Source: Escherichia phage EG1. Taken from it: 39,919 bases of DNA. The position numbers and the translations under genes were made by a program. The stretch lies in sequence record MG488277. One strand, 5' to 3'. The notes beneath the pieces are model-generated. The model was not told where the DNA came from. It worked only from the letters and a program-made list of their open reading frames with translations, and did not search any database. Shown in pieces: positions 33,201-36,538 of this stretch. The first letter of the stretch is position 1; every line of letters starts with the position of its first letter.

Positions 33201-34223
33201 TTAGCGGCTCGCTCCCCGTGGACGGTTATGCTAAATGGCACCACTAACTACATCATTGACGCTGCCCGTCAAGGTGTCCTTGGGGATATTGCAAGTGCAG
33301 TATTATCAGGGACTGGTGCTAAGTTTGGTAAGGCAAATTATCTTAAGTCTGCATCAATAAGTCCTGAGCAGTGGAATGGTATCAAGCAACTATTTCGAGA
33401 CCACGCCACTCGTGATTCTAGCGGTAAGTTCACAATCAGGGACAAAAGAGCGTTCACCTATGACCCTCGCACAATGGACCTGTGGAGACTTGCTGACAAA
33501 GTTGCAGGTGAGACAATCATGCGGCCGCACAAGATTTCCTCACAGGACTCAGTTGCGTATGGGGCAGGTGTTAAGATGGTGATGCAGTTTAAGAACTTTG
33601 TCATTAAGTCTCTTAACGCCAGATTCGTGCGTAGCTTCTATGAGGCCACGAAGAACAACCGTGCGTTAGACCAAGCGTTAACTCACATTGTTTCCTGTGG
33701 TCTAGCTGGCGGCTACTTCGTTGGGCAAGCACACCTAAAGGCAGCATCCTTACAGGAGGACAAACGTAAGGAGTACCTTAAGATCGCTCTTGACCCGAAG
33801 ATGATTGCTCATGCGGCTATCTCTCGTAGCTCGCATTTAGGTTCGCCACTTAGCATCTACGATATGATCGCTGGGGTGTTTGGTGATGACACCTATAAGT
33901 ACACACGCTCAACGGTACTGCCTAAGCAGCCAGAAGAACGCGATCGCACAAAAGCGGTCACAGGTCGACAGGTGACTGGTATGATTAGTGGTGCTTTAGG
34001 TGATCAGATTCCTGCTTTGGGGTTCGCAGGGCAGGTCGGTGGTACGGCGCTTAATGCTGTGTCACTATTGAAGGCCCCAAACAAGGCTACCGAGATGGAG
34101 TTCCGTACAGGAATGTTTAATACCATGCGTGAGATTGTCCCAAACGACCCTATCACGCAGCAACTCATTATGAAAATTTATGAGGCCAATGGTATATACG
34201 TTCGGGAGACGCCTAGGAAATAA
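30249..34223 (+). CDS. 16: Internal core protein gp16 with N-terminal lytic transglycosylase domain
   Basis: 1324 aa; N-terminus ...AWTESRFQPTAKSKTGPLGMMQF... typical SLT motif. Confidence 0.95.
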   Translation: MDKYDKNVPSDYDGLFQKAADANGVSYDLLRKVAWTESRFQPTAKSKTGPLGMMQFTKATAKAMGLNVTDGPDDDRLVPELSINAAAKHLAELVNKFDGDELKAALAYNQGEGRLGAPQLEAYTKGDFSAISEEGRNYMRNLMDVARSPMSGQLEAFGGITPKGKGIPSDVGLGDIKVEGKRKVTDVLPESTGLNIKGIEQEAPAKSFATDFWDHHKQELSEYDARSTFFGFKKDVDAEIHNSVLGMAFRAGRLDNSFDVFKDVITPTRWNSYVPTQEDLEKLRNSGLPPSYYGVVTGGDAETWDDLIKLAKENYEKDLQRADSGIGAQLAAGVIGAAFDPLSYVPLVGVTGKGFKLINKALVVGAQSAAINAASEGLRTSIVGGEAHYTGAILGGLMFGAGMSAISDAVSSAIRRGKPEAEFNNEFVGPLMRMEARETAFNANSEDLSKMNTDGIKFDREYGGVSYAPLDTEPGAVVLPQGQILSDTNPLNPQTLSEFEAINPERAARGISLGGFTEIGYKTHRSDNATVRSIASDLVRSPTGMESGSNGKFGSTADDIHSRLSSNDNRDWNLYYDKMMEVMKDPEFTVGAPKMSKAEAVEFIDRKIALAIEHPEMQANLSPKELDLMRHVKGHYDLKRELMENPAVFGNPKAVSIFPGSRNKGTYIPRVYDTQSKNLYIQRLGSREALQEAIAESSLASYYLRPEVKARIDEHLMEVNGLKSAKDVTHEMVRKYAMDKAYGISHTDQFSASSIVDENITGLVGIENNNFLESRNLFDTDVPTTLPDGSSFSVDDIRVFSQRILMPAYDRRVNGDIAIMGSSGKTTKELKDEIMELSKQAEGNGQLKGEVEALKDTVKILTGRARRSPEGALETALRSLNDLTFFAKNFYMPLQNFTEIGAMLIKGNVSAVTHGIPMINDWVNRRKPMRASEIKELHSMVFGKELDQLMRPSREDHIRRLRESTDTNAVLANVVGTLRFGTQELAARSPWTVMLNGTTNYIIDAARQGVLGDIASAVLSGTGAKFGKANYLKSASISPEQWNGIKQLFRDHATRDSSGKFTIRDKRAFTYDPRTMDLWRLADKVAGETIMRPHKISSQDSVAYGAGVKMVMQFKNFVIKSLNARFVRSFYEATKNNRALDQALTHIVSCGLAGGYFVGQAHLKAASLQEDKRKEYLKIALDPKMIAHAAISRSSHLGSPLSIYDMIAGVFGDDTYKYTRSTVLPKQPEERDRTKAVTGRQVTGMISGALGDQIPALGFAGQVGGTALNAVSLLKAPNKATEMEFRTGMFNTMREIVPNDPITQQLIMKIYEANGIYVRETPRK

Positions 34224-34243
34224 TACGACTCACTATAGGGAGA
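34221..34243 (+). promoter_or_regulatory. phi17: T7-RNAP class III promoter phi17
   Basis: taatacgactcactataGGGAGA. Confidence 0.95.
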
Positions 34244-34298: not shown

Positions 34299-36287
34299 AT
34301 GGCTAACGTAATTAAAACCGTTTTGACTTACCCGTTAGATGGCTCAAATCGTGATTTTAATATTCCGTTTGAGTATCTAGCCCGTAAGTTCGTAGTGGTA
34401 ACTCTTATTGGTGTTGACCGTAAGGTCCTTACACTCAATACAGATTATCGCTTTGCTACGCGCACTACTATCTCGCTGACAAAATCTTGGGGTACAGCTG
34501 ATGGCTACACGACCATCGAGTTACGCCGAGTAACCTCCACGACCGACCGCTTGGTTGACTTTACGGACGGCTCAATCCTCCGTGCGTATGACCTTAACGT
34601 TGCTCAGATTCAAACGATGCACGTAGCGGAGGAGGCGCGTGACCTGACTGCTGATACAATCGGTGTCAATAATAACGGTCACTTGGATGCCCGTGGTCGT
34701 AAGATTGTTAACTTGGCGTATGCCACAGGTGACTATGATGCCGTCCCTTTAAAGCAGGTTAAAGAGCGTGAAACCTCTGCGTGGAATGCCGCAACAAAAG
34801 CTAACGAACACGCTGACCGTTCTAATAGGGAAGCAAACCGTTCCCGTGATGAGGCCAACCGCGCTCAACGTGAAGCTGACCGCTCAACGCAACAGGCAGA
34901 TGTCTCTAAGCAACAGGCAGTTGAGTCCAAGAAGCAAGCTGACCGCTCAGACGCTGAGGCTGACAGAGCTAAAGGTTATGCTGATAGCATGATCGCAAGT
35001 GTCGCTGAGGCCGAGAAGCAAGCTGACCGTGCCGACTCTGAGGCAAATCGTGCCCGTGATGAGGCCAATCGTGCTGCCGGAGAAGTGACTAAAGCTGCTG
35101 CTGAGGTTGCCAAGGCTGCTGCACATGTTGAGACCGCTAAGGGACATGCTGATAGGGCTAACACTGAGGCAAACCGCTCCAAAGGTGAGGCTGACCGTGC
35201 TAAGTCTGAGGCAGACAAGCTGGGGAATATGAACAGCTTAGCTGGGGCCATTGACAGGGTTGAGGATAGTGATGTTTACTTTAAAGGCAAGGTAGGCTCT
35301 CGTGTTTTAACGCTCCACAATGATGCTAAAGGCGCTGACACACAACCAGTTGATTTAGTATGGAATCAGTGGCGTGGACAGAACGCTAAGGATACCGTAT
35401 GGGAACAGTGGATTCAGGCTGGTACAAAACGCATGGACTTCTATGTGTTCAACAATACAGACCCTGCCACATGGCCTGAAGGACGCTCTAATGGTCATGG
35501 TCGTCATGACTTCTATGGAGGATTCCACTCTCACCATGACTCCAGATTCTACCAGAACGTCTCTATGGATGGGTACCTTCGAGTCTCTAAGTATATTAGG
35601 ACTGACGAGAGATTCTACACTGAGTCAACTTATGGGTCAGGAGCGTTCGCAAACCAATTGAACAATAATGCCCCTTACTCTCAAAGCCTCCCTGGAAATC
35701 AGGACGGTAACGTATACTACCCTATGATTAAACAATATGGTAGACGCTCGAATGGTTATCCGGCGGCATTCTCCATCGGTATGGTATCAAAGGGCAACAA
35801 CAACTTCCACGAGGGTATTATCCAACTCAAAGGGGATGGTACGAATGAACATGCCCTTACAATTACCATTCATGGCCAATTGTCGAGCAATAAGGGTTGG
35901 TTTATTCCACCAGATGGCAACCTGTACATCAACAAGTACAACTCGTATATTGATGCGTGGGTCAACAAACGCCTTGATGAACATATCTATAACAAAAGTA
36001 CCGCCGATGGTCGTTATATTCGCAAGAATGCTGGGTGGAGTGAAGTGTGGAAGGGGACCGCTGGTGGTGGGGTATCCGTATCTCTATCTCAAGATGTTCG
36101 TTGGAGAACCATCTGGATTCAGACCAACGGTCGCTGGAACCCTGTAGAGATTGGGGACGATGGTGCCTACTATATTTCCTCTATGGGTGGGTGGCTGACA
36201 TTCACTATCTCCAACGGCGGTCGAACCTTCAAGAATGACAGAGATGAGAGATCTGTACCAACTCGCATTCTGGTGCGTAACAACTAA
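34299..36287 (+). CDS. 17: Tail fibre protein (gene 17)
   Basis: 662 aa; N-terminal ~150 aa and C-terminal tip match T7 gp17, middle coiled coil and distal domain diverge. Confidence 0.95.
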   Translation: MANVIKTVLTYPLDGSNRDFNIPFEYLARKFVVVTLIGVDRKVLTLNTDYRFATRTTISLTKSWGTADGYTTIELRRVTSTTDRLVDFTDGSILRAYDLNVAQIQTMHVAEEARDLTADTIGVNNNGHLDARGRKIVNLAYATGDYDAVPLKQVKERETSAWNAATKANEHADRSNREANRSRDEANRAQREADRSTQQADVSKQQAVESKKQADRSDAEADRAKGYADSMIASVAEAEKQADRADSEANRARDEANRAAGEVTKAAAEVAKAAAHVETAKGHADRANTEANRSKGEADRAKSEADKLGNMNSLAGAIDRVEDSDVYFKGKVGSRVLTLHNDAKGADTQPVDLVWNQWRGQNAKDTVWEQWIQAGTKRMDFYVFNNTDPATWPEGRSNGHGRHDFYGGFHSHHDSRFYQNVSMDGYLRVSKYIRTDERFYTESTYGSGAFANQLNNNAPYSQSLPGNQDGNVYYPMIKQYGRRSNGYPAAFSIGMVSKGNNNFHEGIIQLKGDGTNEHALTITIHGQLSSNKGWFIPPDGNLYINKYNSYIDAWVNKRLDEHIYNKSTADGRYIRKNAGWSEVWKGTAGGGVSVSLSQDVRWRTIWIQTNGRWNPVEIGDDGAYYISSMGGWLTFTISNGGRTFKNDRDERSVPTRILVRNN

Positions 36288-36334: not shown

Positions 36335-36538
36335 ATGTTGTCTTTAGATTTTAATAATGAGTTAGTCAAGGCCGCACCTATTGTTGGCACTGGTGTGGCT
36401 GATGGCGCTGCGAGGCTTTTCTTCGGTCTGAGTCTTAATGAGTGGTTCTACGTTGCCGCTATCGCCTACACAGTGGTTCAGATTGGTGCCAAGGTAGTCG
36501 ATACGATGATTGACTGGAAGAAAGCCAATAAGGAGTAA
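36335..36538 (+). CDS. 17.5: Class II holin (gene 17.5)
   Basis: 67 aa MLSLDFNNELVKAAPIVGTGVADGAARLFFGLSLNEWFYVAAIAYTVVQIGAKVVD... Confidence 0.9.
   Translation: MLSLDFNNELVKAAPIVGTGVADGAARLFFGLSLNEWFYVAAIAYTVVQIGAKVVDTMIDWKKANKE

Follow-up and report, generated by a model that had tools for sequence, protein, structure and literature searches.

A 22-heptad tail fibre shaft of Berlinvirus type in gene 17 of the T7-like Escherichia phage EG1

The 39,919-nt sequence of Escherichia phage EG1 analysed here (record MG488277, hereafter the window) represents a complete T7-like genome of 39.9 kb, which shares 92–94% nucleotide identity with the records of Teseptimavirus and related phages (IME390, PHB20, vB_YenP_WW2). 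An ORF located on the plus strand at 34299..36287 and coding for a protein of 662 aa is identified by its sequence as gene 17, i.e. the gene for the T7-type tail fibre protein gp17 of Autographiviridae: its product matches Pfam family PF03906 (E = 5.7e-63) as well as the PDB chains of T7 gp17 (E = 3e-122), and the homologous CDSs of phages PHB20, T7, Berlin, S523 and BA14 are annotated as tail fibre. Upstream of the gene lies a T7-type late promoter, phi17 (34221..34243, plus strand), an exact match to TAATACGACTCACTATAGGGAGA; 12 such promoter sites were found in the window versus 0 expected, and the equivalent site of BA14 is annotated as phi17. Gene 17 is preceded by an ORF of 1324 aa ending at 34223 and followed by an ORF of 67 aa at 36335, which, judging by synteny, probably encode the internal virion protein D (gene 16) and the 17.5 holin, respectively. 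The annotations of PHB20, T7, Berlin and BA14 show the same order, gene 16 – gene 17 – 17.5 holin. By homology to T7, gp17 of EG1 would be a homotrimer present as six fibres per virion.

The first 150 residues of gp17 (34299..34748, plus strand) correspond to the N-terminal tail-attachment domain. The PF03906 match extends over residues 1–155 (211.7 bits, cut-off 25.2), residues 1–165 are matched by PDB entries 8e4g and 8dsp, which contain T7 gp17 1–165 (E about 1e-87), and the nucleotide identity of this domain to T7 amounts to 90–97%. The subsequent shaft, composed of 22 unbroken heptads, occupies residues 165–318 (34791..35252, plus strand) and is delineated by the heptad table, the periodicity, the helices predicted by AlphaFold2 (AF2) and the conservation of heptad position a; the predicted helix starts at residue 151 (nt 34749), ahead of the heptad array itself. 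The shaft harbours three ADR blocks, all on the plus strand. The first of them, ADRSNRE ANRSRDE ANRAQRE ADRSTQQ (residues 172–199, 34812..34895), serves as the reference for the direct-repeat family D2 (57 nt), while the other two, ADRADSE ANRARDE ANRAAGE (residues 242–262, 35022..35084) and ADRANTE ANRSKGE ADRAKSE (residues 284–304, 35148..35210), contain D2 copies of 77% (at a spacing of 210 nt) and 70% nucleotide identity, respectively. The last two heptads of the third block are kept in almost all members of the family.

Where the shaft passes into the distal half of the fibre, i.e. at the junction that in T7 is the kink region, lies the family-wide shaft-end motif EADKLGNMNSLAGAID (residues 304–319, 35208..35255, plus strand), and this motif was used as the C-terminal anchor for the comparison of shaft lengths. 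In an alignment of 40 sequences, residues A298, D299, R300, A301, E304, A305, D306, K307, L308 and N312 turned out to be invariant or nearly so. The C-terminal tip domain (residues 556–661, 35964..36281, plus strand) is a homologue of the tip by which T7 gp17 binds its receptor, as it is matched by PDB entries 4a0t and 4a0u, which cover the tip region of the T7 protein, residues 371–553 (E about 3e-24), and it is modelled by AF2 with a pLDDT of 85–94. When the full-length gp17 was searched against Pfam, PF03906 was the only family that passed; neither the shaft nor the central part of the distal half was matched.

According to the original reading of the sequence, positions 34790–35215 (residues 164–306) carry a near-perfect array of about 20 heptads of the form A(D/N)Rxxx(E/Q). 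The array itself is real and somewhat longer, since residues 165–318 can be read in sevens as 22 consecutive heptads without a single register break, yet the full A[DN]Rxxx[EQ] pattern is present in only 11 of the 22, the remaining heptads retaining the a/d/g pattern alone. Position a is occupied by Ala or Val in 21 of the 22 heptads (A17, V4, N1) and position d by Ala or Ser in 20 (A13, S7), whereas position c is mostly Arg or Lys (R12, K4), position g mostly Glu or Gln (E11, Q4, H3), and Asp or Asn predominates at position b (D10, N5). All 12 A[DN]R motifs of gp17 fall into one register. At a period of 3.5 residues, the power of the hydrophobicity signal equals 18.5, a value reached in 0 of 5000 shuffles (maximum 8.6), and the periodicity scan of the shaft gave no hydrophobicity peak at 3.6 or 3.67 residues. 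In addition, the amino acid self-identity of the shaft rises above 0.22 at no lags other than multiples of 7, and a register tracker moved along residues 151–318 returned the same register in all 28-residue windows except for one tie (start at residue 193).

The expectation that this segment would differ in sequence from its T7 equivalent and exceed it in length was borne out: the two share only 45–50% nucleotide identity, and the shaft of EG1 is 154 residues long versus 112 in T7, a difference of exactly 42 residues, or 6 heptads. The proximal rod of T7 gp17 (residues about 151–276) likewise lies between PF03906 and the distal half and has an alanine core; moreover, both rods share the end motif ADRAERE ADKLENY NGLAGAI and the same heptad phase between the anchors. 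However, the rod of T7 comprises 16 heptads instead of 22, and its first half is built of FRNEAET-type heptads with an aromatic residue at d, the Ala/Ser heptads resembling those of EG1 being confined to the second half. In T7 the register shifts near residues 207–214, whereas a single register is kept throughout the EG1 shaft.

Much closer counterparts of the shaft were found elsewhere. The gp17 proteins of PHB20 and IME390 (Teseptimavirus IME390) have the same 22 heptads and differ from EG1 at 2 of the 154 shaft residues. In gp17 of the Berlinviruses Berlin, Yep-phi, BA14, S523, 285P and FE44, the same 154-residue shaft is present without indels at 71–90% protein identity, and these proteins share with EG1 the terminal EADKLGNMN motif as well as the residue pattern at heptad positions a, c, d and g. 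The N-terminal domains of these proteins, in contrast, exhibit only 57–71% nucleotide identity to EG1 over the first 270 nt, and their distal domains differ as well, the gp17 of phage Berlin, for example, being 569 aa long.

The mosaic structure of gene 17 was assessed by sliding nucleotide identity. From nt 1 to about 400 the gene is closest to that of T7 (90–97%). In the region of the shaft (nt ∼430–900), the identity is 99–100% to PHB20 and 90–97% to the Berlinviruses S523 and BA14, and that to T7 drops to the low values mentioned above. The middle of the distal half (nt ∼1170–1620, residues about 390–540) is S523-like (80–93%) and only 51–58% identical to PHB20, although the N-terminal domain and the C-terminal tip of PHB20 are 90–99% identical to those of EG1 (90–93% in the case of the tip). 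This pattern of identity along the gene indicates that the long shaft was acquired as a module whose junction coincides with the border of the N-terminal domain and the shaft.

The 22-heptad shaft is an already known and widely distributed tail fibre module. A tblastn search retrieved it at a coverage of at least 80% from 72 GenBank phage records, including Berlin, Yep-phi-like Yersinia phages, BA14, FE44, S523 and CarlSpitteler; the matching genes are tail fibre genes wherever annotated, and most of the matches listed are ungapped and span 495 nt. The search of 1.84 billion representatives with the shaft sequence yielded 46 clusters at E ≤ 1e-3, almost all of which are gp17-like fibres, with no unexpected relatives among them. 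Two candidate relatives, P0127 and P0130, were discarded as unrelated repeat proteins giving compositional matches. Anchor-to-anchor distances measured in 132 cluster representatives fall into 13 classes, ranging from 134 to 205 residues, of which the common ones correspond to the length of T7 (95 representatives) and to that length plus 7 (15), 14 (2) or 42 residues (5). A strict quantisation of shaft length in heptads throughout the family was nevertheless rejected: although 117 of the 132 representatives conform to it, only 4 of the 13 classes do, and the other 9 deviate from multiples of seven relative to T7. Gains of whole heptads or heptad blocks by repeat-driven growth do occur in some distant members of the wider family: one of them (P0004) carries a heptad in duplicate (ETNAKTS ETNAKTS), another (P0128) tandem blocks of 28 residues.

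Matching short repeats at the DNA level had also been pointed out, and both of those quoted are indeed present, namely GCAACAGGCAG at 34889 and 34910 and CGTGATGAGGCCAA at 34845 and 35055. The longest exact repeats of the shaft DNA are two 16-nt pairs on the plus strand: AGAAGCAAGCTGACCG at 34930..34945, with the second copy at 35014–35029 (84 nt, or 4 heptads, away), and CCCGTGATGAGGCCAA at 34843..34858, repeated at 35053–35068 (210 nt, or 10 heptads). Such an arrangement raises the question of whether slippage or unequal recombination continues to alter the length of the shaft, the array then being a tandem DNA repeat of recent origin. Within the direct-repeat families, the distance from the start of one copy to that of another is always divisible by 21 nt, recombination between the exact pairs would remove 4 or 10 heptads without disturbing the reading frame, and both the steps of 7, 14 and 42 residues between the common length classes and the duplications seen in P0004 and P0128 count in favour of such a process. 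Tandem Repeats Finder, however, failed to detect the repeat (0 rows in 34600–35400 with the minimum score set to 30), which is too degenerate in its nucleotide sequence; no two heptads agree in more than 19 of 21 nt, and for most pairs the number is 16 or lower. At in-register positions occupied by the same amino acid, identical codons were counted in 210 of 480 pairs versus 203 ± 11 after permutation of synonymous codons, with 507 of 2000 permutations reaching the observed number. Lags of 70 and 84 aa gave p values of about 0.05, which is not significant over the eight lags tested. Since the synonymous sites show no excess of identity, the DNA repeats are a by-product of the protein motif. 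The number of repeats, which was to be compared among related phages, does not vary within this shaft type either: 11 of 11 such shafts, spanning identities of 70–100%, are 154 residues long and free of indels. Taken together with the fact that the shaft differs from that of T7 through a module swap and that most length classes of the wider family are not heptad multiples, these data make recent or ongoing expansion of the array very unlikely. Hence, the originally suggested repeat-driven change of fibre length does not hold for the shaft of EG1, while it remains plausible family-wide; the EG1 shaft is a Berlinvirus-type module recombined onto a T7-type N-terminal domain and not a recently expanded DNA repeat.

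With respect to the fold, the AF2 monomer model of gp17 contains two helices in the shaft region, residues 151–244 and 249–317, predicted with moderate confidence (pLDDT 60–73) and separated by a non-helical break at residues 245–248 (pLDDT about 51). The model being that of a monomer, and of low confidence outside the tip, it is uninformative on the oligomeric state. The pattern of conservation is that of a coiled coil: among 11 homologues with the same shaft, the column entropy is lowest at position a (0.07), followed by g (0.24), c (0.27) and d (0.34), and rises to about 0.66 at e and f, with position a being invariant in 19 of its 22 columns. In the 40-sequence alignment, which includes fibres of the T7 type, the invariant or nearly invariant residues of the shaft are likewise mostly alanines at a (A179, A186, A221, A235, A291, A298, A305). 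The strict heptad periodicity, the predicted helix and this conservation thus agree with the long, regular coiled coil proposed originally, the oligomeric state and packing of which are inferred.

The core of this putative coiled coil is atypical. Instead of Leu, Ile and Val, the a and d positions are filled with small and partly polar residues (Ala/Val and Ala/Ser, respectively), and large hydrophobic residues account for only 13 of the 154 positions of the shaft. A core of the alanine-zipper type is known from the Lpp-56 trimer, and that of the shaft is compatible with such a type; given its small and polar character, canonical knobs-into-holes packing can be assumed only. Pairs of opposite charge are about twofold enriched, numbering 23 at i+3 and 20 at i+4 versus 10.8 ± 2.8 in shuffled sequences, an excess consistent with a ladder of the type Glu(g)-Arg(c)-Glu(g) running along each helix.

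Searched alone against the PDB, the shaft matched only T7 gp17 and gp53 of Pseudomonas phage DEV, apart from noise (dynein, portal protein), and the coiled-coil parts of both proteins are unresolved in these entries, which is why they provide no experimental template. DEV is an N4-like phage, and its long tail fibre protein gp53 differs in its N-terminal barrel and carries an esterase domain. Nevertheless, the coiled-coil domain of gp53 (residues 115–250, PDB 9COD chain) contains EVTKAQAEVTKAA and ANRAKTEADRSKSEADRA heptads, the EG1-like run ANRAKTE ADRSKSE ADRA lying within the predicted coiled coil; these heptads align with residues about 228–309 of EG1 gp17 (E = 9e-5), a weak and partly compositional similarity. 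The coiled coil of gp53 is predicted by AF2 to be trimeric and is unresolved experimentally (PMC11445570). The proximal segment of the T7 fibre has been described as a triple-helical coiled coil on the grounds of AlphaFold, MD and AFM, and as "not yet structurally resolved" (PMC13485008). When the full-text literature was searched for a heptad analysis of gp17 shafts, no paper uniting "heptad" with gp17 and T7-like was retrieved.

The enrichment of opposite charges at i+3 and i+4, combined with the scarcity of large hydrophobic residues, is also what would be expected if the three chains of the fibre formed nearly independent, charge-stabilised single alpha-helices (SAH-like) joined only by the terminal domains, and it has been observed by AFM that the proximal triple helix of the T7 fibre can unwind completely (PMC13485008). 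In the same images, however, the wound triple helix is the starting state (PMC13485008). Furthermore, while the dense opposite-charge pattern typical of such helices is present in the shaft, so is the conserved apolar seam that they should lack, in the form of Ala/Val stripes at a and Ala/Ser stripes at d: the alanines at a are the most conserved residues, followed by g, c and d, which outlines a contact seam needless for an isolated helix, and the period is exactly 3.5 rather than 3.6 residues. Independent helices are therefore considered unlikely. The break at residues 245–248 of the AF2 monomer is the sole point in favour of an antiparallel helical hairpin into which the shaft would fold back. 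This tetrapeptide sits within the regular heptad ADRADSE, with neither Gly or Pro nor a change of register, and monomer predictions of homotrimeric coiled coils often fold back, so the break is most likely an artefact of monomer modelling. [quoted passage not shown]

It is thus concluded that residues 165–318 of EG1 gp17, a Berlinvirus-type module joined to a T7-type N-terminal domain, constitute the proximal part of the fibre, very probably in the form of a rod in which a parallel three-stranded alpha-helical coiled coil would act as a spacer. According to this model, three parallel alpha-helices, one from each gp17 chain, would be wound around each other from residue 151 or 165 to residue 318, their seam being formed, as in an alanine zipper, by small residues (Ala or Val at a, Ala or Ser at d), and an intrahelical ladder of Glu(g)-Arg(c)-Glu(g) salt bridges at i+3 and i+4 would stiffen each helix. 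The domains flanking the shaft match the solved trimeric domains of T7 gp17, and the ends of the rod would be held together by the trimeric tail-binding N-terminal domain on one side and by the trimeric distal receptor-binding half on the other. The canonical rise of a coiled coil is about 0.148 nm per residue; at this rise, 154 residues would span about 23 nm and the 112 residues of T7 about 16.6 nm. A length of 24.0 ± 2.8 nm has been measured for the proximal section of the T7 fibre (PMC13485008). Provided that the shaft indeed forms a geometrically regular trimeric coiled coil, the 6 additional heptads would make the arm that is presumed to set the reach of the receptor-binding tip roughly 6 nm longer than that of T7.

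The functional meaning of these additional heptads is a matter of conjecture. A tentative and, on balance, rather doubtful proposal is that the E-A-(D/N)-R-(S/A) heptad defines a distinct subclass of trimeric coiled coils of phage fibres, in which the length, counted in whole heptads, is under selection as a ruler that fixes how far the receptor-binding tip extends through different LPS or capsule layers. Were this true, the Ala/Ser-zipper core and the Glu-Arg-Glu ladder would give a straight, torsionally soft and reversibly unwinding rod with lengths of 16, 17, 18 or 22 and more heptads, and the shaft of EG1 would be the cleanest natural example without stutters.

Taken alone, the presence of a long Berlinvirus-type fibre shaft in a T7-like phage is a finding of little consequence. 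It confirms that tail fibre genes are mosaics with junctions at domain boundaries. The indel-free rod of 22 heptads, together with the motifs at its ends (starting around ...DAVP and ending with EADKLGNMN), may offer natural splice points for the construction of chimeric fibres, and the shafts of T7 and EG1 may be viewed as a natural experiment on the relationship between shaft length and adsorption. The residual interest is structural, as a stutter-free, Ala/Ser-cored shaft of 22 heptads would be a clean subject for solving the structure of the gp17 shaft.

Gene 17 of phage EG1 (window 34299-36287, + strand), which codes for the tail fibre protein gp17, is, by sequence comparison, a mosaic of four pieces. 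The piece encoding the N-terminal domain is closest to T7 (90-97% nucleotide identity), while the shaft piece resembles those of the Berlinviruses and of Escherichia phage vB_EcoP_PHB20 (PHB20). The middle of the distal half (gene nucleotides about 1170-1620) resembles that of the Berlinvirus S523 (80-93% identity) and shares only 51-58% with PHB20. The tip piece resembles that of PHB20 (90-93%). Within the distal half, the proximal section (gp17 residues about 335-470, window 35300-35700) gave no match in the Pfam search and has AF2 pLDDT values below 50; part of its length is common to P0004, a distant gp17 relative, and PHB20, e.g. WNQWRGQ...WEQWIQAG.

In the shaft of T7 gp17, the heptad register changes at residues about 200-215 by a stutter-like +4 shift, which falls between a first half with an aromatic core and a second half with an Ala/Ser core. 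In gp17 of EG1, by contrast, the equivalent ambiguity is limited to residues about 161-168, where A161, A164, A165 and A168 are compatible with both registers. Duplications of heptad blocks are clear in the distant gp17 relatives examined (proteins P0128, P0004 and P0124): the repeat unit of P0128 reads ADRATSQ ANSATSQ AGIAxxQ AGIAKSE, and ETNAKTS is present twice in P0004. Among distant relatives, the distance between the conserved anchor points flanking the shaft reaches 205 residues, and some shafts contain ANLATxNGAAQV elements, with the heptad phase broken by +1.

Three ORFs of 66-91 aa lie across the shaft in other frames or on the opposite strand (window 34768-34992, +; 34947-35147, -; 34976-35251, -). 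Their products are rich in Ala, Ser and Leu and mirror the heptad codons; most likely these ORFs are by-products of the repeat and not genes.

The window contains 12 matches to T7-type promoters, all on the + strand (positions 381, 6402, 6476, 7243, 9947, 11634, 18545, 21492, 22527, 26893, 34221 and 39205), against none expected by chance, and six of them carry the exact 23-nt consensus. EG1 therefore uses promoters of T7 specificity, even though it carries a Berlinvirus-type fibre shaft.

Heptads like those of the EG1 shaft were also found at residues about 130-250 of gp53, the long tail fibre of the N4-like Pseudomonas phage DEV (PDB 9COD chain sequence), where EVTKAxAEV and ANRAKTEADRSKSEADRA resemble the EG1 repeats (E 9e-5). 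This likeness at the sequence level suggests that the heptad motif, or the module, also occurs in phages outside the Autographiviridae.
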